From an uncultured archaeon (lineage in GTDB: Archaea; Asgardarchaeota; Lokiarchaeia; Sigyniarchaeales; SOKP01), in contig CAZALK010000010.1 in assembly GCA_964486045.1 (NCBI GenBank), positions 32,001-96,000 on the forward strand: a DNA stretch of 64,000 nt, written 5' to 3'. Within the stretch, counting starts at the first letter, position 1. The number at the start of each line of letters is the position of its first letter. Shown one piece after another: positions 31,944 through 47,921 of this stretch. Made by a program: the position numbers and the translations under genes. The notes under the pieces are model-generated. The model was not told the origin of the DNA, made no database searches, and saw nothing but the letters and a program-made list of their open reading frames with translations.

Positions 31944-32168
31944 AAAAATCTCCTTTAAAATTTGATATAGTAATTCTTATAAATAGTCGTGTAAAGAAAT
32001 TTATACTTATTTAAATGTAAAAATCAACATTTAAGAATTAGGTTCCTTAATTATAAAAATAAAAACCGAATTTATATTGTTTAAAGGTCCTAAAGAATTG
32101 AGAAATATTTAAATAAAAAAGTTTAGAGGTAGTTTGTTTTGATCTGTTTTGTCCTTTTCTCTTTTTAC

Positions 32169-32510
32169 CTAACCAATTTGAGTCTTATAATGTTCCACGC
32201 AAAACCATGTCTTAGATTTTTTATGATAAGTCATATCTCTATTATGTTTACTACATATTGGGCACTTTACAATAGAGGCTCTTAGAGGACGTTCAATATC
32301 CCACCATTTATCAGAAAAACGCTTTAGTATTTCAATTTTTTCCTCAGATGGGTGAATATATTTTCCATTTTTATCATGCTTTAAGTTATGTTCTTGGTCA
32401 CTAATTTCCATCTGTCTTTCTGCGCATTCCTTCAAAATAATTAATCATAAATTGTTCCTAGCTCTCTGTAATTTTGGATCTTTGATCCGTATAGTTCTAC
32501 CGTTTTTCAT
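32169..32510 (-). pseudogene. Small Zn-ribbon protein with an internal TGA (32447-32445)
   Basis: ATG at 32510 gives MKNGRTIRIKDPKLQRARNNL*LIILKECAERQ, in frame with the track ORF; CPIC...WFCVEH at the C-terminus. Confidence 0.55.
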
Positions 32511-32688
32511 TTATATTCATGTTTATTTTAGTGTGTCTCAAATTTAAATCTTTGTAGAGCGACAGATTTCTAATACCTTAAATACTAAAAATTTGCCTTA
32601 AATAGTAAATATCGGCAATGCTGAATACTCTACCTAATTTATATCCTCTATAATCTGATAGTTCTGCTAATGAATTAAGCAGATCACC

Positions 32689-32838
32689 GTGCATTATACA
32701 GAAGACGCCCCTCCTATTGAAACAACAGATACTATCATCCCTAATGATTCAATCTTCGGTTATTCAACTATAGTAATTGTTATTATACTGTTCTTCAGTA
32801 TTTCAATTAGATTATTCAAAGACAGAAAAAAAATATAA
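32689..32838 (+). pseudogene. Orphan C-terminal fragment of a surface protein with a Loki-CTERM-like sorting signal
   Basis: VHYTEDAPPIETTDTIIPNDSIFGYSTIVIVIILFFSISIRLFKDRKKI*: Pro/Thr linker, I-x-GY, TM helix, basic end; upstream frame is closed. Confidence 0.5.
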
Positions 32839-32954
32839 AATTAATATCATCGTTTTTTTATTTTGATCTTGAGTAATAAAAATTTTTCTAAATGGCATTT
32901 TACTAATCTTTCACTCCTATTTTTCTTTTATAAAGATTCATATTTTTATGGTGT

Positions 32955-33209
32955 ATGGTAGAATCGATTCATCTAAAAGAAATGGAAGACCTTGGTCTTA
33001 GCACTACGATAGAAGGATATTATGTTGAAGAAGATCAAAAATCAGTATCTATTAGGTTACCAAATAGTATGTCTTTTTGGGTACCTAAACGGTTTATTGA
33101 TACTCAATTTTTTAGGGAGACTGATCTCAAGCAAGAGTTCCTTATTGACAATTGGATACTGCGAAAGATCGGACTTAGGTTAGATAAGATCAAAAAAATA
33201 GATCGTTAA
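32955..33209 (+). CDS. Small hypothetical protein (beta-rich)
   Basis: 84 aa ORF with ATG start and protein-like composition ('FWVPKRFI...IDNWILRKIG'). Confidence 0.6.
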   Translation: MVESIHLKEMEDLGLSTTIEGYYVEEDQKSVSIRLPNSMSFWVPKRFIDTQFFRETDLKQEFLIDNWILRKIGLRLDKIKKIDR

Positions 33210-33441
33210 AATCTTTTTGGGCTTCTATATCTCGTATGAATTGCTGAAGTGGAGAATCATCCTCAATATAATGAAGAACATCTGAGTGTATCCAAGTAGT
33301 TAAAGGTTTGGCTTCTCTGTACTTTGCCTGTTCATCAGGGCTTAGTGTTAAGTACTCTGAATATTCCTTACACCATCGTATAACTTTATTACTTTTTGCG
33401 CGAAAGTAGTTTCTTTTCTTATGGAGGTTTTGGTAAAGCAA
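33190..33441 (-). pseudogene. Probable gene fragment
   Basis: 83-aa protein-like frame with a weak start, in a zone of decayed ORFs. Confidence 0.35.
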
Positions 33442-33966
33442 ATTCAGCTGACATCAAAAGCACATCATAATTAAAATTTTCAAATTGCATTATTAGTTCA
33501 TTACCTAATGCACTTAGAATTAATATTCAATGGGAGAAGAAAGACGGGAACATCATTCTATATTAATTCCCCCATGTTCTTCCTTAATTTTGATATGAAA
33601 AGGGATTTTATCATTTTGTTTCTGTTCCACGCTTTGAAAAAAGAAATTTGGCATTAGTACAGGAAGGAAAAGAAAAAGGAAGTTAAGTTTTGTTCTTAAT
33701 AGATTCAATTTGAGATATTAAAGGCCACTGATTATAATTTAATTCTTTCTTATCGTATCTATTATTAAATTAGGAATTTATAAAGGGAAATCATTAATAA
33801 ATCCTCTGTCCCTTCACAAATATTGATGATTATTTCCTTCTTAAAGTCATGATAATACAAAACAAGACCAAAGGAAAAAGAACATTTACACCTGAACAAA
33901 AAGAGTAATATAAGACCAAGAAAGAAGCACAAAGTAGTGTTAAGAAATTTATACTTTATTTAATCG

Positions 33967-34926
33967 TTAAAAAAGATTTGAAATTAAATATGAAAACACC
34001 TCATCAATTCCTTCTCCTGTGAGTGCTGATGTTTCAAAAAAAGGGAAATCATATTCCTCTGCTAAATCTTGAGCTCTGGATCTAATTTCTTCCCGATCCA
34101 CTGCTATATCGATCTTATTTCCAACGAGAACAATTGGAATTGATTTATCTTTAATGAATTGATGAGTTTCTTTAATCCAATCAATTATATTATTAAAGGT
34201 CTCTATTCTAGAATAATCGAATAAAATTAGAACCGCATTTGAATAGTTATAATAATATTTTCTAACTTTAGCAAAGCTTTTTATTCCTCCTAGATCGAGG
34301 AGATATAATAATAGATTATAATTCTTTGAAATTTGTAATTTTTTTTCTATTATTGAAATTCCGATTGTAGGTTTGTAAGCTTCATTGTAAGTTCCCATAC
34401 AATACATTCGTACTAAAGCACTTTTCCCTGCTGATTCAGGTCCCACAACAACAATTTTATTTTGATTATTTTTAGTATACAGTGTCCTATTTTTAGGTTT
34501 AAATATTAATTGCATATTTTCGTTTAATTTTGGAATTTTTGATATAGACTCTTGATTATTTAGAATCAGTGATATTTTTTCTGCTGTTAAATAGGCATAT
34601 GGAATAATTTGATCAATATTTGAATAAGGATCTCCTATTAATACAAAAATTGCGGGAGTTACTTTTTTTAACTCCACAAAAAATAGTTGAAATTCATTGG
34701 TACTGAATGTTCCACATCCAAATGAAGTTTCAGCATATTGTCTAATTCTATTTATTGTTTGATCCAAAATTGACATAATAGCTCCTATCATTTCCTCATC
34801 AAATCCTCTGATTGACTGTTTAGCAATAATTAACCCATCTAAATCTAAAATAATGGTTGCTAATAATCCTTGTGTTTCATAAATTAAATCTGAAAGTATA
34901 TCTTCTAGTACTCCTAATTTTGACAT
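33967..34926 (-). CDS. Roadblock domain fused to a Rab/Ras-like small GTPase
   Basis: N-terminal roadblock ('GLLATIILDLDGLIIA...MIGAIM'); G1 GPESAGKS, G2 PTIG, G3 DLGG, G4 NKID, G5 ETSA. Confidence 0.9.
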   Translation of the reverse strand: MSKLGVLEDILSDLIYETQGLLATIILDLDGLIIAKQSIRGFDEEMIGAIMSILDQTINRIRQYAETSFGCGTFSTNEFQLFFVELKKVTPAIFVLIGDPYSNIDQIIPYAYLTAEKISLILNNQESISKIPKLNENMQLIFKPKNRTLYTKNNQNKIVVVGPESAGKSALVRMYCMGTYNEAYKPTIGISIIEKKLQISKNYNLLLYLLDLGGIKSFAKVRKYYYNYSNAVLILFDYSRIETFNNIIDWIKETHQFIKDKSIPIVLVGNKIDIAVDREEIRSRAQDLAEEYDFPFFETSALTGEGIDEVFSYLISNLF

Positions 34927-34932
34927 TAGTTT

Positions 34933-35598
34933 CTATAGATCCATATTATATTTGATGTTTAAAATTTTGAATAAATTCTTTAAAATATTCAGACTAGGAA
35001 TGAAGCACATTACACAATCTATTTTTATCTCTTTCAGTGCCAAGTTCGTTTTGATTAAAACCAAATAATCTGATATTTGAGAATATTTTGCAATAATTCT
35101 ATTTAGCATTGCATTTAATGTGTCAAGTGCTACTGTAGGAACATTAGGGACTAATTTAATTGACATTAAATCAGCTAAACCATTTGCATAATGCCCAGAT
35201 AATATGTTACCTATTTCAGTTATGATGCTTAACGAAAGCTCGTCAAGATCCTCACTAGTTCTTACGTTTTCAACAGAAAGATTAGAATCTTCATTCAGAT
35301 AATTAACTAAATTAAAGATTGATTCTTTTGTAAATATTTGAATAATTGATAAATCTGATGTAAGGTGGATTTCAGAATAGATCCCAAATACCTCAACTTT
35401 TGGGCTTTCAAATAATTCTTCTACCTTCCAGAAGGGAATAATATCAGCTGAAGTTAGTGAAACCTCTATTTCATAATTAAATAATTTTGAAAAAGCTGTA
35501 ATTGCATGCCCAGACCCGATGTTTCCAATTTCCTTTAACATGTCTAATTGTTCTGGAGTTAGGTGGAATTCTTCTGGTATCTTAAAATCGTTATTCAT
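34933..35598 (-). CDS. cheC: CheY-P phosphatase CheC
   Basis: Two E-x-x-N active sites: KEIGNIGSGHA and TEIGNILSGHY. Confidence 0.9.
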   Translation of the reverse strand: MNNDFKIPEEFHLTPEQLDMLKEIGNIGSGHAITAFSKLFNYEIEVSLTSADIIPFWKVEELFESPKVEVFGIYSEIHLTSDLSIIQIFTKESIFNLVNYLNEDSNLSVENVRTSEDLDELSLSIITEIGNILSGHYANGLADLMSIKLVPNVPTVALDTLNAMLNRIIAKYSQISDYLVLIKTNLALKEIKIDCVMCFIPSLNILKNLFKILNIKYNMDL

Positions 35599-35624
35599 TT
35601 TGTTTTTTCTCTTTTTTTTGATTT

Positions 35625-36173
35625 TTAATAAAATTTTTTAAAATCTGTTTCTCCAGTTGATTTTACATACAAGGAAAAATCGTTTGTGTCAAAAATCACG
35701 TTTCTCCCCTTTGAACCCCCAGTCTCTTCTTTGATAATTTGTATTTTTAATATATCTAATTCTTCCTTAACAGAAGCGATATTATTAAATCCCACATCAT
35801 TATTTTCTAAATCAAATATTTTTGAGCCTCCTATAATAAATGCCCTAATATTCTCTCTTACAGCACCATGATTTAGTAGTTCTTCCATTAATAATTTTAC
35901 AGAAAAGCTTGCGTATTTATGCGGATATTGGATTATTTTAGTTGGACTTGCTTTGGGTAATAAAATATGAGACATTGCGCTTAATTTGTTTATTTCGTCA
36001 AATAAAACCAGGGCAATGCACGAGCCCAATCCATAAATTGAAATAGTTGGTTTACGATTTGAAAGAAAGTTTTTGCTGTTAGAGAGTGCATAATGCCCAA
36101 TTAGTACAGATATATTTCCATTTCTATCCGTTTCCTTGATTTGATCAATTGGCTCTATAATACTCACCTTCAA
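35625..36173 (-). CDS. cheD: Chemoreceptor glutamine deamidase CheD
   Basis: 'GLGSCIALVLFD...SHILLP', 'KYA', 'GGS', 'ETGGSKGR'. Confidence 0.92.
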   Translation of the reverse strand: MKVSIIEPIDQIKETDRNGNISVLIGHYALSNSKNFLSNRKPTISIYGLGSCIALVLFDEINKLSAMSHILLPKASPTKIIQYPHKYASFSVKLLMEELLNHGAVRENIRAFIIGGSKIFDLENNDVGFNNIASVKEELDILKIQIIKEETGGSKGRNVIFDTNDFSLYVKSTGETDFKKFY

Positions 36174-36199
36174 TCATGGGTTTAAGTATTGAATATTTA

Positions 36200-37318
36200 T
36201 TATATAAATTTTGTTGCAAATTTAATCATATAATCATGAACTTTATATACTGGAAGTATTAGATTTGCTGCACCTAGCTTTGCTGCTGCTCTTGGCATCC
36301 CATAAATAACACATGTCTCCTCAGATTCAGCGATAGTTTTGCCACCATTATTTTTAATTGCTTTTAATCCCCTTGCACCATCATCTCCCAACCCTGTTAA
36401 TAGAATTCCCATTACATTATTTTTGTATATTTCTGCAGCTGAAAAAAATAAAACATCCACAGAAGGTTTGCAAAAATTGACTGGTTTATCATCAGATATT
36501 CGAATGTGAGGTCTATTTTTTATAGTTATAATCTTCGTGTGTTTTCCACCAGGACTCAAGTAAACATTACCGGGTAATATTCTCTCCCCATCGTCTGGGA
36601 TTTTTACGTTTATTTCACAAACTTGATCCAGAGATTTACTAAGTTGTTTCATAAAAAATGCATCAAGATGTTGAACGATCAAGATTGGGCTTGGAAAATC
36701 CTGAGGAATCTCTTTTAAAATAAATTTTAAAGTTCTTGGTCCACCGGTGCTGGTGCCTATTACTATTAAATTTGCTTCTAATATAAGTTGAGGAGCTTTT
36801 GGAAGATGTAACGGTTTGGGTTTTATTGGTGTTCTTATTTTTCTCTTTACTTCTAATTCATTAATAGATTGTTTGCTAATTGATTTTCTTATTAGATTAT
36901 TTCGTTTTTCATAACTTTTTTTTATTTTTGCTGCGTATAAAACACTTGAAACTAATTTTTCTTGAACCTTTGGGAATTCAGTTTTCCATAGACCTTTGGG
37001 TTTTATTATAAAATCTAATGCTCCTAAAAGTAACGCTTGAACAGAATTATCTAAGTTTTCTGGATTAAAAACTGAAAAAATTATAGTTGGTATTGGATAA
37101 TGTTCTGAAAGAAATTTTAATACTGTTAACCCGTCAACCTCAGGCATTATTAAATCTAATATTAATACATCAGGATTCAACTCTTCAATTTTTTCAATTG
37201 CCTCCCTCCCGTTTCGAGCAGTATCAACAGCAGAAATTTCATTGTGTGAAATTAGCATTTCAGAGATTAATTTTCTTTGATATGCTGAATCTTCTGCAAG
37301 TAATACTCTAACAGACAT
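36200..37318 (-). CDS. cheB: Chemotaxis methylesterase CheB
   Basis: REC domain plus GTSTGGP / VQH / TGLGDDG, 'PSVDVLF', 'YGMP'. Confidence 0.93.
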   Translation of the reverse strand: MSVRVLLAEDSAYQRKLISEMLISHNEISAVDTARNGREAIEKIEELNPDVLILDLIMPEVDGLTVLKFLSEHYPIPTIIFSVFNPENLDNSVQALLLGALDFIIKPKGLWKTEFPKVQEKLVSSVLYAAKIKKSYEKRNNLIRKSISKQSINELEVKRKIRTPIKPKPLHLPKAPQLILEANLIVIGTSTGGPRTLKFILKEIPQDFPSPILIVQHLDAFFMKQLSKSLDQVCEINVKIPDDGERILPGNVYLSPGGKHTKIITIKNRPHIRISDDKPVNFCKPSVDVLFFSAAEIYKNNVMGILLTGLGDDGARGLKAIKNNGGKTIAESEETCVIYGMPRAAAKLGAANLILPVYKVHDYMIKFATKFI

Positions 37319-37326
37319 GATAATGT

Positions 37327-38358
37327 TTAATTGACCTTCATATATATTCGATTTAATGAGTCTACTAACTTTAAATTACTCTGGGAGCTAAAAATTGTTT
37401 CTGTTTTACCTATGATTAATAAGCCCCCTGCATTTAAACGATTTTCAATGATTTTTAAGAACTTATTTCTTGCAACTCTATTAATGTATATTAGGAGATA
37501 TCGACAAAAAATGATATCATAAACCTGTGATGTTTGATGGCCTTTCATTACATCTTCCCCAATAAACTTGATATACTTTTTTATTTTTTCATTTATAGTG
37601 TATGTAAATCCGAATCCCACTTTTTTCTTCAAAAAGTAATTTTTTTCAAAATACTTTGAAACATTTTTTGTTGATTCTTCGTTATACACTCCGATATTTG
37701 CTCTTTTAATAGCGTTTTCATCAATATCAGAAGCTATAATTCTGAATTTAGGAAATTGTGGAATTTGTTTTTTAAAATTATCTAAAATTATTGCAATAGA
37801 ATATGGTTCTTCACCGTTTGCACATGGACAAGACCAAATATTAATAGTCTCCTTAAATCTTTGGAAATTCTTCAGCTTTTTATATAAAATACTTTTTGGA
37901 ACGATTTTCTTTGCTGATAATTTATTTTTTAACCTGTGTTCTAAGTCCTTCTTTCTATTGGAAATCTTTTCAATTTTATTTGGTTTCTTTTCACTTTTTT
38001 TACGATATTTTCTTTCTGGATTGGGATGTAAATTACTAATTACATCTTCTCTTTTGTAATTTCCACTTTTTAATATAATGTCTTCCAATTGGTCATAAAC
38101 TTCCCAATTTCTAAAAAAAGTAGAATAATTGATATTAAAACTAATTAAAAATTTATTTATTTCTTTAGGATTTTCTACTAAATATTTGTAATACGATTCA
38201 AAGTTAGAACAATTAACACGAATCATTCGAGATTTAATTCTTTTCTCGATATGTTTTCTTTGATAATATCCTAGTTTTAACCCAGTTGTTTTATTCAAAA
38301 ATCGAATTAATAAATCATAAAAATCCTCATCAAATTTAATATCCTCAATTAGTATCAC
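37327..38358 (-). CDS. cheR: Chemotaxis methyltransferase CheR (with a Lys-rich insertion)
   Basis: 'INYSTFFRN', 'IWSCPCANGEEPYSIA', 'ASDID', 'YDIIFCRYLLIY', 'GKTE'. Confidence 0.92.
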   Translation of the reverse strand: MILIEDIKFDEDFYDLLIRFLNKTTGLKLGYYQRKHIEKRIKSRMIRVNCSNFESYYKYLVENPKEINKFLISFNINYSTFFRNWEVYDQLEDIILKSGNYKREDVISNLHPNPERKYRKKSEKKPNKIEKISNRKKDLEHRLKNKLSAKKIVPKSILYKKLKNFQRFKETINIWSCPCANGEEPYSIAIILDNFKKQIPQFPKFRIIASDIDENAIKRANIGVYNEESTKNVSKYFEKNYFLKKKVGFGFTYTINEKIKKYIKFIGEDVMKGHQTSQVYDIIFCRYLLIYINRVARNKFLKIIENRLNAGGLLIIGKTETIFSSQSNLKLVDSLNRIYMKVN

Positions 38359-38368
38359 TTGTGAACAC

Positions 38369-38923
38369 TTATTTTTCTATTAATTTTTCAATTTCGGTAA
38401 ATCGTTCACTGATACGTTCAAATGAATACTTAATATGCATTTGGATTTCTTTAACTTCGGCAAAAAGCTTTCTTATATGAGATCTATCGGACTTTGATAA
38501 AACAAACTGATTTTTTGAATATATTTTATGAATTGGCTCATGTATAGATGGAGAAGAGACAAATGGCTCTAAAACCTCATCCCTACTAAATTCTTGTCTA
38601 GATTGCCCAGGAAAACTTAGATCAGAAACATCCTCTTTAATTTCTTTAAGTATACTAACGAATTCAGCAGGTTCAATGCCTTGTTTTATAACTTCATATT
38701 TGAAATTATAAAATTTCTTCTTAGTTTTAAGTTTTCCAGCCCAATTCGCTGCCATGTACCTATGAAACAACCGGGAGTGACTACCTGCCCAGATCCAAAT
38801 TAGTTTTAGTCCTTTATCTACAATTAAATAAACTTCAGAGGGATTGAACAACTTCTCTGGTCTGAGCTTGATTGTTTCACCGTCGACCTTATAAACATAA
38901 TCGTAATAGCTACTTTCTGTCAT
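38369..38923 (-). CDS. Single gelsolin-domain protein with a C-terminal helical/coiled-coil extension
   Basis: 'LFNPSEVYLIVD...IWIWAGSHS......A...A.....VIKQGIEPAEF' matches the gelsolin repeat pattern (L.s.dvfilD....iyvW.G..s...a...a.....v.qG.Ep.eF). Confidence 0.8.
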   Translation of the reverse strand: MTESSYYDYVYKVDGETIKLRPEKLFNPSEVYLIVDKGLKLIWIWAGSHSRLFHRYMAANWAGKLKTKKKFYNFKYEVIKQGIEPAEFVSILKEIKEDVSDLSFPGQSRQEFSRDEVLEPFVSSPSIHEPIHKIYSKNQFVLSKSDRSHIRKLFAEVKEIQMHIKYSFERISERFTEIEKLIEK

Positions 38924-39034
38924 TCTTTTGGGTTTTTAACGTATTGAGAAGAGTTTATTTTAATTTAGATTTCCTAGTAATTTGTACAAAATATAAAAAA
39001 AAATATTAGTTTGATTTATCGTTATTCAAATTTT

Positions 39035-41035
39035 CTACGAATAGAACCTTAATAGAGCATCTAATAATTCCTGGAGTGTTTCTAAGTTTGGAATAAATAA
39101 GAAAGTTCCTGTAATTTTAAAATCTGTTACAATCACGCTCGTATCTATAACTAGTGATAATTTCTTCAATAGCCCAATTTCTTCTTTTAGAATCCTAAAT
39201 AACTGTTGTCCAGTGTCTACAGACATGTCAGGAGGTTCTGTCATCAATTTTAAGCCAAGTAAATTACCAATTGCACTTACATAATGACTTCCAAGAATAT
39301 GTCCTAGTTCAGAGAGTGCACTTTTATAGAGGTCAGGAAAATCAGAAGCCTTGTTAATTTTCTTTCTTAAATCTATCTGCCTTTTACTAGTATCATCAAC
39401 TATTATTGAAGTAATGTCAACTGCATCTTTCAAATTAAATATTGTTAACACTGTAGCTCTTGCTCTTCCAACAACATTACTCCATGCAACTAAGAGTTTT
39501 TCATCTTTTCTGCTAATTGAATTTGCATAATCATCTAATTCCACCATCTGAACGGAAGGAATGTTGATATCAACTCTCTTGTTAATCATCTGAGCTAAGG
39601 CATTTGCAGCATTCCCTGCGCCTATATTACCAACTTCTTGAAGGGCATCTCTTTGAACTTCCGAGAGTTCAATTTTTGATAACTCCAGAAGTTCAGGAGC
39701 TTTTTTAGTTTTTGCTGGTGTTTCTGAAATTTCATGTCTAATTTCAAGTTTTTTAAAGATAATTGAGAGAGTTTCAATATCTGGAATAAAGAAGAACATA
39801 CCTTTTAGTTTTAAGTCAGATACTTTTATAGATGTCTGAATGATAATGAAAAAATCTGCAATCGCTTCAAATTCTTTTGAAAGAAATTCCCCTATTTCCC
39901 CAGCAGTACTCATAGTAAATTCAGGGACGTCAATCATTAGCTTTGTGCCAAGCAGATCAGCTAAGGCTGAAGCATAATGACCTGCCATAATGTTTCCCAT
40001 TTCTGTTATCGTGGATATAGCATAATCATCAAGATCCTTTTTAGTTTTAACCTTATTAGGTACAATCTTTGAATCTGGACCTGCTAAATCTGATATTAGA
40101 TGCATTAGGGGCTTCATTTCAAAGATATTCAGTATAGTTGCTGGAGAGGGCTTTTCTATATGACAAAAAATTCCACATACTTTATCATTTTTACCACCGA
40201 ATTGGCTTGGGAGTTCATCTAATGGAATTATGCCTACATCAGTGAGAGTTACGTCAATCTTCTTTTTTACTAATCTAGATAAAGCAGTGACTGCATTTCC
40301 TGTCCCAATATTCCCTAATTCTTTCAAAGTGTCTTGTTGTTCTGCTGATAAAACTACTAGCTTTTCTTTTTTAACTTTTTTAACTTTTTTGGTGGTTGTT
40401 GCTTTTGGTAGTTTTTGTTTCTTTTTTGGTGCTTGAACAATTTGTGGAATTACAAGCGTAGAATCAATATCTGGTCTATCAATTATCTTCGGTTGCACTT
40501 TAGGACGTTCTAGGCTTGTTGGCTTTATATCGATTTTTTTCTCAATTTTTCGACCCATTGATTTGATATATGGCTGAATTAAAGCATCTAAATCTAATAA
40601 TATCAAAGATTCATCCTCGAATACTCCGGTTAATTTTATTAGTTTAAAATCTATATTAGTCTTAACAATAGTTCCTTGTTTTTTGAAGATTGCAAGGGGT
40701 ATATCTCTAACACCGATTACTACATCTACTAACACTGCTATTTTAAGATTTCTGTATTCTAGCAATAAAATCCTTGAAAACTCATCGATGCCATAATCTA
40801 TATCATTCCCATATATATTATGTCTTAATGATATGATTGAGTAGATCTCCCCTCTTATACTGATAATGCCCACGATTGATTTATCTGTTAATGGTACAGA
40901 AACAATATCATCTCCGGGTACATAAATTTCCTTAATGTTTGAAACTTCGAGAAGATATTTTTCATCAAGCACTTGTATTATTACCACATTTATGTTTTCT
41001 CCAAATTCTATTTCTTCAGATTTACTTTTAAACAT
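39035..41035 (-). CDS. CheW-CheC-CheC fusion protein
   Basis: N-terminal CheW ('VPLTDKSIVGIISIRGEIYSII...AVLVDVV'), Lys/Pro linker, two CheC modules (KELGN/TEMGN; QEVGN/SELGH). Confidence 0.88.
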   Translation of the reverse strand: MFKSKSEEIEFGENINVVIIQVLDEKYLLEVSNIKEIYVPGDDIVSVPLTDKSIVGIISIRGEIYSIISLRHNIYGNDIDYGIDEFSRILLLEYRNLKIAVLVDVVIGVRDIPLAIFKKQGTIVKTNIDFKLIKLTGVFEDESLILLDLDALIQPYIKSMGRKIEKKIDIKPTSLERPKVQPKIIDRPDIDSTLVIPQIVQAPKKKQKLPKATTTKKVKKVKKEKLVVLSAEQQDTLKELGNIGTGNAVTALSRLVKKKIDVTLTDVGIIPLDELPSQFGGKNDKVCGIFCHIEKPSPATILNIFEMKPLMHLISDLAGPDSKIVPNKVKTKKDLDDYAISTITEMGNIMAGHYASALADLLGTKLMIDVPEFTMSTAGEIGEFLSKEFEAIADFFIIIQTSIKVSDLKLKGMFFFIPDIETLSIIFKKLEIRHEISETPAKTKKAPELLELSKIELSEVQRDALQEVGNIGAGNAANALAQMINKRVDINIPSVQMVELDDYANSISRKDEKLLVAWSNVVGRARATVLTIFNLKDAVDITSIIVDDTSKRQIDLRKKINKASDFPDLYKSALSELGHILGSHYVSAIGNLLGLKLMTEPPDMSVDTGQQLFRILKEEIGLLKKLSLVIDTSVIVTDFKITGTFLFIPNLETLQELLDALLRFYS

Positions 41036-41079: not shown

Positions 41080-41940
41080 TTATTTTATCATAATTCCTTT
41101 CCAGATTAATTCTACTTCAGGATCATCCTCATTCACTTCAGTGTAAAAGTCCAATTGCTTAAAAATCGAAATTTGGCCACCACTTGTGTGTTTATAAACG
41201 TAATTTAGTAAGTCATCAATACTAATGAAATTAAATCCTGCTACTTTTAATTCTGAATCATTCACAATTAACAAGTCTTCTCGTTTGAAAAAACGATTTT
41301 CTTCAATAAATTCTACCATCAATGTAGGATCTACCTCTTTACTAATTACCTTAATTGGTGTGTCAAACGGTATATTTCGAAACGACTTACTGGTTGCAAA
41401 AATAACCTTATCTGGAAGTAGATTTTCTTGCTTAGCATAATTGGTAATTTCAGTTAATACTTTCTTGTAATTACTTAATTCTAAGATATCGTGACAAGAA
41501 ACCAACAACACTTTATTTTCACTAGTTTCAATGATAAAATCAAGAAACCGATCTGAACTAGAATTTATATTAATTTTTATTGACTCTACCTTCAAATCTT
41601 CCGTATATTTAAGATTTTGATAGAATCTCCACTTTACTGCTTTTTTATCATTTTCTTCCCTGCTGATAAAAACTTGAAAAAGTTTTTTCAATTGTTCAAG
41701 GTTTAATTTCGATAAATCTGCTATTTTATCAACATCAGTACCTATTGGAACATAATCCTTACTAGTAGTTGTCTTTGACTTTGATTTTGTGTTTTTAGTT
41801 TTTTTGGTTTTTTTAGATTCAACATCATCCAAATAAATTTGTAATTCGCTTTTTGTGAATTTTGGGAGAATTTGTTCAATAAGGTATAATAAATATTCTT
41901 TCGATTTATCATCCATTGTTTCATAAAACTGTAAATTCAT
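41080..41940 (-). CDS. Hypothetical protein within the che operon
   Basis: 286 aa, co-oriented with 26-44 bp gaps; the central 'LDFIIETSENKVLLVSC' segment weakly suggests a restriction-endonuclease-like fold. Confidence 0.65.
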   Translation of the reverse strand: MNLQFYETMDDKSKEYLLYLIEQILPKFTKSELQIYLDDVESKKTKKTKNTKSKSKTTTSKDYVPIGTDVDKIADLSKLNLEQLKKLFQVFISREENDKKAVKWRFYQNLKYTEDLKVESIKININSSSDRFLDFIIETSENKVLLVSCHDILELSNYKKVLTEITNYAKQENLLPDKVIFATSKSFRNIPFDTPIKVISKEVDPTLMVEFIEENRFFKREDLLIVNDSELKVAGFNFISIDDLLNYVYKHTSGGQISIFKQLDFYTEVNEDDPEVELIWKGIMIK

Positions 41941-44035: not shown

Positions 44036-46114
44036 TTAATTAGTTATTTGAGATACTATATTTTTATTGAACTTCGAAGAAATTATACTTAGCACATCAA
44101 TTATTAGACAAATAGCCCCTTCACCTGTTATTGTAGAACCTAAAATATCACGAGAATCTGAGTAATTAGATTTAAATGGTTTTACAACAATGTCAAGCTG
44201 CTGTAGTTGTTTGTCAGCTATAAATACTGCCGAGTTTGTTTCATCTCTTTGGCACCAAACAGCTATTTTTTTATGAGCGTTTGTTGTACTTTTCTTTACC
44301 ATCTCTAAATGCTCCTCTAAATAAATTATTGGTATTTTTTTACTACCAATTCTGTAATATTGTTCTCCATCTTCATGTTCAACCTGATTTGGGTTGAAGA
44401 AGTATATTTGTTTTATGTTTTCAGTTGGAATAGCGAATAAGTCATTAGAAATTTGCATTAGTTGTGCTCTTAGAATTGCTCGTGTAAATGGAACAATTAG
44501 TGTAAATCTTGTTCCAATATTTTTTTCAGAGTAAATTGTAAAATCTCCACCAAGTTCTCCTATTTTCTCAGCCACTATAGCCATTCCCATACCTCTTCCG
44601 GAAAGGATATCGGCCTCAGAGAGTGTTGAAAATCCAGGCATTAAAATGAATTTATGAAGCTCTTCATTATCTATCTCTTTTACCTCGTTCTCATCGTAGT
44701 AACCTTTCTCTACAACTTTCTTTCTAATTTTATCGTAATTAATCCCAGCACCATCATCTTGTACTTCAATATAAATTGAGCCTGCTCGTCTATATGTATT
44801 GATTCTCAAAGTGGCAACGTCATTTTTACCCATTTTCCGCCTTTCCTTCGGTAACTCTATTCCATGATAAATAGCATTCCTTATAAGCTGAACTAAAGGA
44901 GAATTTAGGTCTTCTAAAATTTTCCTGTCAATTTCGACATTTGTTCCTTCTAAAATCAACTTAAGTTTTTTACCAGTTTCATTTGCTAAATCGCGAACTA
45001 ATCTCTTATATTTTCTAAATGTTGACTCAACTCTGACTAATTTTAATCTGAATAGAATTTCTTGAATATCGAGAAATGGTTTATCCATTTTATCAAATAA
45101 TCGAGAGATAGTTCTATCTTGTTTTTCCTTTAAAAGTTGAGAGATATGATTCTTCATTACTATTAGTTCTCCAAAATAATTCATAAGCTCTTCTAAGTAT
45201 TCAACATTAACTTTTACACTAGAAATTCTAATAGTTTCTCCCGAAAAATCATCTACTATTTTAGAAACCCTTTCAACCTCTTCATCAAAAGTCTCTTCTT
45301 CCATATCAGTTTCATATCTTGATTCTATACTTACATCCTCAGGTTTCTCCCTTTCCCATTGTTCTTTAAGTTCGATAATTATTTTTTCAAACTCTTCAGG
45401 TTTCATTGGTTTTATGACTTTGCTTTCAATCTCTAGGATCTCAGCGATCGTGTGAGATATTTCGGTTTTATTCTTTGTAGTTATGAAGTATATTTCAAAC
45501 TCATTCTTCAAAGTTGCTTTTTCTAAATCTTCAGGAGCAGGATGAGTCCAGCATATTTTGCCATTTTCATTTAGTGCTCGAAATATTATAAATAACCTAA
45601 CTTTTTTGAAGACACATGTTTCTTCAAGCCTAATATAAATTTTAAATGGTTTGTTCTGCTTTTTTTGTAGAATTTTAGAGATTTCTTCTTGTGATAACGC
45701 TTGGATAAATGTTATATCGTAATCACTTTCAAAACTTTCAAAGCTATCTTTGATATCTTCCACAAATTTTGCGTCTAAGTCAGTTAAATCTCCAGTTTTT
45801 ACTCTTTTTATTACCATTCTTAACACATCAAGTGATTCAAAGAGCATATCAACGAAATCACTTTTCTTATTAAGACTGGCTTTTTTTTCTTTTGCATTTT
45901 CTAAAAAGGATTCAAAATGATGGCAAAATTTTGATAAGTTATCAAACCCTGCCATTGCAGTTAATCCTTTTAACGTGTGAAAAGTAAAAAAGAGTCCTTG
46001 AACTGGTTTTAGATCATCTGGATTTTCCTCTATATTTAGAATTTCATCTTCTGTTTTCTGAATCAGATCCTCTGCTTCACTAACAAATAGTTTCATATCG
46101 TCTTTGGATGACAC
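44036..46114 (-). CDS. cheA: Chemotaxis histidine kinase CheA
   Basis: Hpt 'FHTLKG', P2, dimerisation domain, HATPase (RNAIYHGIE, DDGAGI, PGFST, GRGMGM) and C-terminal CheW-like P5. Confidence 0.95.
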   Translation of the reverse strand: MSSKDDMKLFVSEAEDLIQKTEDEILNIEENPDDLKPVQGLFFTFHTLKGLTAMAGFDNLSKFCHHFESFLENAKEKKASLNKKSDFVDMLFESLDVLRMVIKRVKTGDLTDLDAKFVEDIKDSFESFESDYDITFIQALSQEEISKILQKKQNKPFKIYIRLEETCVFKKVRLFIIFRALNENGKICWTHPAPEDLEKATLKNEFEIYFITTKNKTEISHTIAEILEIESKVIKPMKPEEFEKIIIELKEQWEREKPEDVSIESRYETDMEEETFDEEVERVSKIVDDFSGETIRISSVKVNVEYLEELMNYFGELIVMKNHISQLLKEKQDRTISRLFDKMDKPFLDIQEILFRLKLVRVESTFRKYKRLVRDLANETGKKLKLILEGTNVEIDRKILEDLNSPLVQLIRNAIYHGIELPKERRKMGKNDVATLRINTYRRAGSIYIEVQDDGAGINYDKIRKKVVEKGYYDENEVKEIDNEELHKFILMPGFSTLSEADILSGRGMGMAIVAEKIGELGGDFTIYSEKNIGTRFTLIVPFTRAILRAQLMQISNDLFAIPTENIKQIYFFNPNQVEHEDGEQYYRIGSKKIPIIYLEEHLEMVKKSTTNAHKKIAVWCQRDETNSAVFIADKQLQQLDIVVKPFKSNYSDSRDILGSTITGEGAICLIIDVLSIISSKFNKNIVSQITN

Positions 46115-46138
46115 ATAATCACCTTATTTTTTATGTAT

Positions 46139-46537
46139 TTAGGCTTTTTTATACTTTAGTATACGATCCATAACCTCTAAGATTTGTTCAGTTTTGAATG
46201 GTTTTTGGATAAAATCTTTTGCCCCTTTTTTAGCAGCTTCTAGAACTAGAGCTTCCTGTCCTAGTGCTGATACTACAACGATTAATGCCTTTGAGTTTAT
46301 TTTTAGAATCTCCTCTGTAGCTTCAATTCCACCCTTTTCTGGCATTACTAAGTCCATAGTGACCAAATCTGGGCTTAATTTTTTATATAGGGAGATTGCT
46401 TCTACTCCGTTGGAGGCTTCACCGATTACTTCAATTTGTTCGATCTTGCTAATGATGTTTTTTAGCATATTTCGGGTAAATTGCGCGTCATCGACGATAA
46501 GTACCCTTTTCTTCCCATTCTTTTCATTCTTTGACAT
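46139..46537 (-). CDS. cheY: Response regulator CheY
   Basis: Single REC domain: VDD, MDLVMP, SALGQ, KPF (Firmicute/archaeal CheY type). Confidence 0.93.
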   Translation of the reverse strand: MSKNEKNGKKRVLIVDDAQFTRNMLKNIISKIEQIEVIGEASNGVEAISLYKKLSPDLVTMDLVMPEKGGIEATEEILKINSKALIVVVSALGQEALVLEAAKKGAKDFIQKPFKTEQILEVMDRILKYKKA

Positions 46538-46566
46538 TTTATTTTATTCAACTCCTATTTTTTGTT

Positions 46567-47088
46567 TTATGTTAATGATGATAAATCTTGTTGAATCCTA
46601 AATTTTTCTACCTCGCTAAAAATCTTAGATAAGTCAAGCACCACCCTTGGTCTATCCTCAAAATTAATTATACCTTTGATAAATTCAATAGCAACACTTG
46701 TTTGAAAAATAGGACTCAACCCAATAATCTCCTCAGGAAGGATGTGATCAATACTGACTATTTGATCCACATAAAAACCTATGAGATCATTTTCTACTTT
46801 TAAAATTATTATAAACTTCTTTGTCTCACTTGAATCTTGTTCAAAAGAGGACCGCTTCTCATGGTATAAGAGGTATTTATCTAAGTCTAATTTTCTTCTT
46901 AAGTTAATTACATGAATAATATCTCCCCTGTAATTGTATATACCATCTATATAGTCGATGCTTTTCGGTAATTTCCTGATTTGTCCTGCCTGAATTATTT
47001 CCTTAACATCCAGGAGGTCAATAACAAATTCTTCCCACCCTATTTTAAAAGTAAGGATGGAAATTTGATCTATTTCTTTTTGAGCCAT
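46567..47088 (-). CDS. cheW: Coupling protein CheW
   Basis: 'FKIGWEEFVIDLLDVKEII...LPKSIDYIDGIYNYRGDII.VINLR...GFYVD'. Confidence 0.92.
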   Translation of the reverse strand: MAQKEIDQISILTFKIGWEEFVIDLLDVKEIIQAGQIRKLPKSIDYIDGIYNYRGDIIHVINLRRKLDLDKYLLYHEKRSSFEQDSSETKKFIIILKVENDLIGFYVDQIVSIDHILPEEIIGLSPIFQTSVAIEFIKGIINFEDRPRVVLDLSKIFSEVEKFRIQQDLSSLT

Positions 47089-47108
47089 TTTTTATATACC
47101 TACCGTTT

Positions 47109-47921
47109 TTATATTATAAAATATTGGTTAATGTTTTTTTCAAATTCGTTAAAGGGAGTTACATCCCCATTAAAATTTTTTAAATAGTCTTTATATTGAT
47201 ATAAAAATTCATCTGCAATGAGGTACATATACCTTTGAAGCAGTGAATTCATATTGTCTACCAAAAATGCAAAAATTACATTACTTTTTGATATAACATA
47301 GAATTGTTGATTCCCAAAATTAATTTCCTTGAGCTTAGCACCAGTTTCCTCTCCTATAATTGTATTGGAAAAGGATAAAAGAGCTGAAATAAATCCACCA
47401 ATGTGAACCTCGTGGTCAGCAATATTGCTACGAGCCTTATTTATTTTTGAAATAAAAGGACTTCCCGCAGAACCAATTACGAAAATAGCAATAATTCCCT
47501 CACTTCGAGGGATTTGAACCGTATTCTCAAATACTTCTATTATCTCTGTGATTGAAGCATTCGAAACTACTTTTTGATTTATTTTTTTTGATAAGAGGTA
47601 TAGACTTCCAAAACTTACAGACTGGTCCTTTTCCTCCATATAAATAATAACTGAAATATCATCCTCACTATTTTTAAAATATTGGATGAAAATTGTAAAA
47701 TCATCTAAAGGAATGATTGAATTTCCCTGCTTTTTGTTAATTATCTCTTTTTTATATAATTCAATAATATTCTGGATAAGCGGGACACCTATTCCTTTTT
47801 GAAATCCAATGTCAAATTTAGCACTAGAGCTAATGTCTGAAATCATTAAAATGCCATAACCTAGCATCTGTAATTTTTCTGAGCCATTGTTACTATTTTG
47901 AGCATTGTTCATAGCTATCAT
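47109..47921 (-). CDS. Longin-like domain protein (first gene of the che operon)
   Basis: C-half 'AIFVIGSAGSPF...IGGFISALLSFS...LKEINFGNQQF...F...Y...L.NFNGDVTPF' is the typical Asgard longin/sigma-like pattern. Confidence 0.75.
   Translation of the reverse strand: MIAMNNAQNSNNGSEKLQMLGYGILMISDISSSAKFDIGFQKGIGVPLIQNIIELYKKEIINKKQGNSIIPLDDFTIFIQYFKNSEDDISVIIYMEEKDQSVSFGSLYLLSKKINQKVVSNASITEIIEVFENTVQIPRSEGIIAIFVIGSAGSPFISKINKARSNIADHEVHIGGFISALLSFSNTIIGEETGAKLKEINFGNQQFYVISKSNVIFAFLVDNMNSLLQRYMYLIADEFLYQYKDYLKNFNGDVTPFNEFEKNINQYFII

Follow-up and report, generated by a model that had tools for sequence, protein, structure and literature searches.

CheF (PF04283) is the archaeal adaptor that links CheY-P to the archaellum. 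In the Frz system of Myxococcus, a Che-type pathway acts on a small-GTPase polarity switch, MglA (Ras-like) with MglB (Roadblock), and on the actin-family cytoskeleton (MreB), and not on a rotary motor. Among the actin regulators of Asgard archaea, two one-domain gelsolins of Thorarchaeota have been described: ProGel, a bare gelsolin domain of ~92 aa with very weak actin affinity (PMC7444086; PDB 7C2F), and 1DGelX, one gelsolin domain with a predicted coiled-coil extension, which binds actin with a Kd of 7.7 uM and severs without Ca2+ (PMC7444086). Chemoreceptor arrays, a che gene set, and an actin cytoskeleton were observed in a related cultured Lokiarchaeon (PMC9834061), and for L. ossiferum the arrays, che genes, and eight gelsolin-like proteins are reported separately (PMC9834061). 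Papers on Asgard gelsolins (PMC7444086), L. ossiferum (PMC9834061), and Asgard GTPases (PMC10933270) leave gelsolin and che unconnected, and we found no paper in the literature on a gelsolin gene linked to che genes.

We use the name GelX for the protein (P0001) encoded at positions 38369-38923 of the window, the whole 64,000-nucleotide stretch of Lokiarchaeial DNA analyzed here. GelX shares with Thorarchaeota ProGel a single gelsolin/cofilin-type domain, the 'DWG' motif, and the loss of the canonical Ca2+ ligands (by residue substitution). Unlike ProGel, to which its aligned identity is ~24%, it adds a PGQSR motif, a linker, a 40-residue helix, and a fixed place in a che operon. Its architecture, a domain at residues 6-98 and a heptad helix at residues 144-183, resembles that of 1DGelX as judged from the published description, but 1DGelX is much larger than GelX (184 aa, 21 kDa), since it migrates near actin on gels, and no chemotaxis context is reported for it (PMC7444086). 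By analogy, 1DGelX may serve as a functional and biochemical model for GelX. The first-pass annotation had stated that one-domain Asgard gelsolins with C-terminal extensions act on actin, and this is true of 1DGelX, which binds and severs it (PMC7444086).

The likeness between GelX and CheF is confined to the postulated role of a che-cluster protein linking CheY-P to a motility apparatus, and PF04283 had no match to GelX even at E values up to 10. The operon described here resembles Myxococcus Frz in that it carries a Roadblock-Ras fusion, a functional analogy only, whereas Frz is bacterial, has no gelsolin, and does not have its components in one operon. Within the known class of one-domain Asgard gelsolins, we regard GelX as a new variant dedicated to che.

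The che operon and the GelX gene

The genes of the operon are co-oriented and encode, in order, a 270-aa protein, CheW, CheY, CheA, a 671-aa DUF11/CLIPPER-like protein, a 286-aa protein (unk286), a CheW-CheC-CheC fusion, GelX, CheR, CheB, CheD, CheC, and a Roadblock-Ras protein (Table 1), with a second CheB ~2 kb beyond the Roadblock-Ras GTPase fusion. The first-pass annotation had placed the GelX gene between cheW-cheC-cheC and cheR, and Pfam agrees, finding a fusion of CheW with two CheC domains upstream and CheR downstream. The motifs that it had quoted are present (VYLIVD at residues 31-36, IWIWAG at 42-47, and QGIEPAEF at 81-88), and the distance that it had given from the stop codon (38369-38371) to the GTG start of cheR (38358), a spacer of 10 bp, is correct. 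In relatives, the same junction is spaced by 11-14 bp or overlaps by 4-8 bp.

Table 1. Window coordinates of GelX, its parts, and the surrounding che operon
Feature	Positions	Strand	Basis or description
GelX gene	38369..38923	(-)	ORF and translation: 184 aa, ATG start; one gelsolin domain, linker, C-terminal helix
Gelsolin domain, residues ~6-98	38630..38908	(-)	Foldseek, VIA-align, sequence matches to Asgard and eukaryotic gelsolins
Post-domain motif D-L-x-[YF]-P-G-[QE]-S-R, residues 101-109	38597..38623	(-)	Conserved, 51 sequences
Disordered variable linker, residues 110-142	38498..38596	(-)	Low pLDDT; gap-rich, unconserved columns
C-terminal 40-residue heptad helix, residues 143-184	38372..38497	(-)	AF2 and heptad/entropy analysis
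Spacer, GelX stop to cheR GTG start	38359..38368	(-)	10 bp
AT-rich gap upstream of GelX	38924..39034	(-)	111 bp; T-run and TATA-like stretch
CheW-CheC-CheC fusion, directly upstream of GelX	39035..41035	(-)	Pfam and synteny
CheR, directly downstream of GelX	37327..38358	(-)	Pfam
286-aa uncharacterized protein (unk286)	41080..41940	(-)	Single copy
DUF11/CLIPPER-like repeat protein, 671 aa	41967..43982	(-)	Pfam; conserved operon member
Operon head: 270-aa uncharacterized protein, CheW, CheY, CheA	44036..47921	(-)	Pfam
Operon tail: CheB, CheD, CheC, Roadblock-Ras-like GTPase fusion	33967..37318	(-)	Pfam

The gap upstream of GelX is the widest within the che operon and may mark an internal promoter or the boundary of a sub-operon. 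Most relatives retain a gap at this place (86-170 bp, with 33 bp in L006), and its alignment is only loosely conserved. The two uncharacterized proteins of the operon gave weak leads, all with named-cluster scores below 0.9: unk286 has weak language-model similarity to PD-(D/E)xK/Mrr-like proteins (scores 0.83-0.85), and the 270-aa protein has weak longin/roadblock-like leads.

The Roadblock-Ras gene and the second cheB are separated by ~2 kb without a long ORF (31944-33966). This stretch holds only frames of 83-91 aa, one of them with CxxC...C-x-E-H, and had no match in Rfam. In the closed genome G093 the same two genes are 73 bp apart, and the ORF-poor stretch in the window may be an insertion remnant.

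Fold, calcium site, and C-terminal helix of GelX

A single-sequence AF2 prediction of GelX was unusable (pLDDT 45), and we took instead the model built from a 51-sequence alignment (mean pLDDT 80). In this model the gelsolin core (residues 10-96) has a pLDDT of ~90, residues 113-139 fall below 50, and the helix at 144-183 exceeds 90. The domain comprises strands at residues 10-14, 17-20, 31-36, 41-46, and 75-80, a long helix at 52-65, and a short helix at 86-96, arranged in the gelsolin fold with a mixed beta-sheet between the long and short helices.

Structural comparison placed this model closest to ProGel. The best Foldseek match was the Thorarchaeota ProGel/actin complex (7c2f_B; E value 2e-6, TMt 0.79), and the best VIA-align match was actin-bound ProGel (7C2F; Z 12.1, rmsd 2.0 Å, 85/88 residues), followed by the actin-bound 2DGel structures of Loki, Heimdall, and Thor. 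All of the best 50 matches listed by VIA-align belong to the gelsolin family (gelsolin, villin, adseverin, CapG, fragmin, and Asgard gelsolins), and no Sec23/24 chain is among the matches listed by Foldseek and VIA-align. When searched with phmmer against the PDB, GelX matched villin (4.6e-6) and Thor ProGel (4e-5) and also 2DGel3, Heimdall 2DGel, and CapG, with E values from ~5e-6 to 2e-3 and alignments spanning GelX residues ~22-95; the matches to villin, ProGel, and 2DGel fell between 4.6e-6 and 5e-5. The GelX family profile matched ProGel with an E value of 1.5e-6, and the whole-library phmmer matches (4e-14 to 2e-4) were multi-repeat proteins with PF00626 E values of their own from 1e-11 to 1e-42. 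At default thresholds Pfam called no domain in GelX, and PF00626 searched against GelX alone stayed below threshold (E 0.025, 14.8 bits against a cutoff of 21). The gelsolin fold proposed for this gene is borne out by Foldseek, VIA-align, and the phmmer and profile matches, with PF00626 alone below its cutoff, and the assignment is confirmed well above chance.

We scored conservation on 51 sequences that are 51-78% identical to GelX. D36, W45, and G47, which form the 'DWG' motif of gelsolins (so named in PMC7444086), are invariant. From S50 to K66, a segment that covers the long helix, essentially all positions are invariant or nearly so, and this conservation extends to the face that is exposed to solvent in an isolated domain. 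The long helix is the one that binds actin in gelsolin G1 and ProGel, and its conservation in GelX, including the otherwise exposed face, fits a binding interface at this canonical position. A gelsolin fold is no guarantee of actin binding, Sec23/24 being the counterexample; that GelX would bind actin is suggested by analogy with its nearest relatives, which are actin-bound structures.

With D187 and E209 taken as acidic ligands of the type-2 Ca2+ site in gelsolin G2, the phmmer alignments give as their GelX equivalents E30, which is Gly in the family consensus, and H54, which is His in at least 90% of the sequences. Since these ligands are replaced, canonical Ca2+ control appears unlikely for GelX, just as it is for ProGel and 1DGelX.

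Beyond the domain, P105, G106, and R109 of the post-domain motif are invariant in the 51 sequences, and L102 and S108 are conserved in at least 90%. The first-pass annotation had also noted a C-terminal amphipathic helix, which the confident AF2 helix at residues 144-183 and its heptad pattern corroborate. Ile or Val recurs in GelX at positions 150, 157, 164, 171, and 178, with further hydrophobic residues at d/e positions. Q161, Y166, R174, and I178 are invariant, and the polar positions E156, E159, Q161, H163, K165, Y166, S167, R174, E177, and K180 are nearly fixed. The entropy analysis gave the helix a low conservation moment, with all faces conserved. This pattern suggests burial among several helices or partners more than it does a simple coiled-coil dimer or a short peptide for docking. 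An HMM of the helix alone matched nothing beyond GelX in its own genome.

The first-pass annotation had further proposed that this helix could be a docking site for CheY-P. The CheY-P-binding peptides of FliM/FliY (N terminus) and CheZ (C terminus) are terminal and carry an amphipathic motif of the E-I-D-x-L-L type. The GelX tail, E177-I-E-K-L-I-E, fits the pattern EI[DE]x[LIM][LIM], but the same pattern occurs in 107 of the 4634 ORFs of this genome (2.3%), 9 of which have it in their final 12 residues, and was dropped as evidence either way because it is too common. With this frequency and with all faces of the helix conserved, the docking proposal did not gain specific support. Elsewhere in the genome, a one-domain gelsolin ORF of 198 aa (G000:C13:159741-160337, +) has the C-terminal sequence SEIELLIEKKQI, similar to that of GelX (TEIEKLIEK); we set homology of the two tails aside, as the helix-only HMM gave it no backing.

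Distribution of GelX and of motor components

The GelX family has ~197 full-length homologs of 170-205 aa, and all named ones come from Lokiarchaeia/Promethearchaeota-type MAGs. No larger fused form was found in a length-unrestricted library search. A Rosetta-stone search returned 73 whole-library matches, and Pfam scans of the 20 longest or most informative found gelsolin repeats or no confident domain, with no Che or GTPase fusion. The order cheW-cheC(-cheC), GelX, cheR is kept in the loci L001-L009, at GelX identities of 65, 61, 54, 51, 38, and 34%. In the closed genome G093 the che operon is split into two halves ~1.08 Mb apart (L009, G093:C1:1431500-1451400, and G093:C1:356076-361099); the break falls before cheW-cheC-cheC, and GelX remains in the adaptation/GTPase half (cheW-cheC...RB-Ras). 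The operon of L001-L003 keeps GelX and has no Roadblock-Ras gene. In these three loci (GelX 61% identical), GelX is followed by a 68-aa CheR_N fragment that lacks the SAM-binding domain (L001:10558-10764).

GelX occurs together with one type of CheA. Among 121 sampled genomes of the class, a threshold of E < 1e-30 gave GelX orthologs in 28, which belong to 8 genera and without exception carry the Loki-type CheA (at least 49% identical). GelX is missing from all 87 genomes in which CheA had no match. Three genomes (G057, G101, and G112) are CheA positive without GelX, and what is assembled of their operons sits on short contigs or at the ends of contigs. Across 201 genomes of the phylum, GelX was found only within the window's own family: it is missing from all 157 genomes of other Asgard families, and 19 genomes outside the family with other CheA types (27-35% identity) are all without it. 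Within its own genus, GelX was lost together with the che operon.

One genome, G010 (10 contigs; L010:9320-18889 and L015), has an intact Loki-type che operon without GelX, with a CheA that is 46% identical. Its order is CheW-CheY-CheA-DUF11like-unk286-CheW-CheC-CheR-CheB, with CheW and the single CheC as separate genes, and it has neither GelX nor a longin-like first gene nor an adjacent RB-Ras. This operon is a natural 'minus-GelX' comparison. An intact operon without GelX indicates that GelX is accessory and not the sole output, and as no GelX, CheF, or archaellin was found in G010, the Che system can work without GelX. By comparison, unk286 and the DUF11-like protein are present in every genome with Loki-type CheA in which that part of the operon is assembled. 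For unk286 this amounts to 31 of the 32 sampled genomes that have the Loki-type CheA, among them G010; in the remaining one, G101, a contig end cuts the operon short. Thus, unk286 is a stricter core member of the operon than GelX. The description of GelX as the best candidate effector is not established, given the G010 operon and the more universal unk286 and DUF11-like proteins.

The window's own genome (5.18 Mb, 99% complete) encodes at least 5 actin-family proteins, ~9 MCPs, and a full che set; it also has weak profilin matches and 7 gelsolin-domain ORFs by Pfam, or ~9 by family HMM. No archaellin, CheF, or ArlD/E was found in this genome, with positive controls for all three families (CheF was found in the 3 archaellated archaea among the 14 control genomes). 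In the class sample, CheF was found in 1 of 121 genomes (G108, which has a divergent CheA type and is without GelX), and no archaellin scored above the Pfam cutoff; neither was found in the GelX-positive genomes of this sample. In the phylum sample CheF was found in none of the 201 genomes, including the 19 with other CheA types. This general absence removes any phylum-level complementarity argument, and we dropped the idea that GelX replaces CheF across Asgard archaea.

A paralogous family of 165-182 aa (L011:8034-8570, L012:8212-8727, L013:8185-8682, and L014:7846-8394) matches the GelX profile with E values of ~1e-20. In these proteins an acidic linker joins the single gelsolin domain to a C-terminal helix. 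Their gene context is conserved and is not a che operon: a ~135-aa protein and a ~330-aa protein, then the paralog, then a FIST sensor-domain protein, LuxE, and LuxC. The FIST-adjacent paralog is a second one-domain gelsolin beside a sensory-type gene.

Possible roles of GelX in the Che system

The best explanation of these data is that GelX is a dedicated, lineage-specific part of the Lokiarchaeial Che system. Its observed basis is the fold, the architecture, the operon position, the strict co-occurrence with CheA, and a genome in which no archaellin, CheF, or ArlD/E was found. Our reading of its role, tentative and somewhat short of probable, is that GelX is the actin-binding adaptor by which the Che system acts on Lokiactin. 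GelX would couple the chemosensory apparatus to Lokiactin by binding actin independently of Ca2+, while the family-specific 40-residue helix at the end of its flexible linker would dock into a helical assembly that a partner from the Che system provides. Through GelX, the activity of the Che system (CheY-P level or array state) would then alter actin capping, severing, or bundling locally, and the altered actin dynamics would bias protrusion growth or cell polarity, in place of a switch in archaellar rotation. Here we infer the actin binding, the helix partner, and the direction of information flow. The wider proposal, that the MCP-CheA-CheY pathway is wired to actin and not to a rotary motor, with GelX as the link and possibly the operon GTPase and longin-like proteins taking part, is possible, if on the whole doubtful.

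A gelsolin-fold protein that is fixed in the che operon and co-inherited with it makes the Che output in these Lokiarchaeia directly testable. If the link is true, this would be the first two-component chemotaxis pathway acting on the actin cytoskeleton. Chemosensing of a prokaryotic kind would then steer protrusion or polarity through actin in the archaea that are closest to eukaryotes, and the link would bear on the origin of directed, actin-based cell behavior before eukaryotes. As a candidate for connecting the sensing of chemicals to the actin skeleton, GelX is concrete though unproven.

The same evidence from fold, synteny, and co-occurrence would also be explained if GelX passed no signal and instead anchored or positioned the chemoreceptor array on actin filaments, for example in protrusions or during division. 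Such a GelX would have functional counterparts in bacteria, namely the array-positioning proteins encoded in the operon itself (ParC/ParP in Vibrio, PpfA/TlpT in Rhodobacter). GelX always directly follows the array-associated CheW-CheC fusion, its long helix, conserved on all faces, would be suited to entering the helix bundles of receptors or of CheA, and its dispensability in G010 fits accessory positioning better than a sole output. However, GelX has no homology to ParA/ParP-type proteins and the output of the Che system would stay unexplained, and we consider this role unlikely. Similarly improbable, in our view, is a gelsolin fold repurposed for a partner other than actin, with GelX as an adaptor or regulator of a GTPase/longin module or of a Che protein. 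The precedent is Sec23, whose gelsolin-like domain touches Sar1 and supplies an arginine finger. The operon does encode the 270-aa protein with its weak longin/roadblock-like leads and the Roadblock-Ras GTPase, and the GelX arginines R51, R55, R109, and R174 are invariant in the 51 sequences; in G010, also, the longin-like gene and an adjacent RB-Ras are missing along with GelX. On the other hand, the top structural matches are all actin-binding gelsolin-family proteins, most of them solved with actin and with no Sec23/24 among the matches listed, and the closest sequence relative is actin-bound ProGel. The L001-L003 lineage, moreover, keeps GelX without RB-Ras in the operon, which weakens the case for GelX as a GAP of the operon GTPase.

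It is very unlikely, we think, that GelX has no functional tie to chemosensing and, as an ordinary regulator of actin, only shares a transcript with the che genes. The co-occurrence data oppose such a reading, as GelX was never found without a Loki-type CheA in the 121 and 201 genomes and was lost with the operon in its own genus. Its position is also conserved down to 34% identity, with a tight or overlapping cheR junction, and by the helix-only HMM the C-terminal helix is confined, within its own genome, to the che-linked family. What speaks for an unlinked regulator is that the genome has ~9 gelsolin-domain ORFs, that the AT-rich 111-bp gap with its TATA-like stretch could be GelX's own promoter, and that the paralogous one-domain family with a helical tail stands in a non-che context.

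The genome also encodes a divergent T2SSE-family ATPase of 719 aa (G000:C1:641842-644001; L016:7842-10001, -), which adjoins a 507-aa uncharacterized protein. This ATPase may belong to a type-IV-filament-like system, which may be an alternative output of the Che system.
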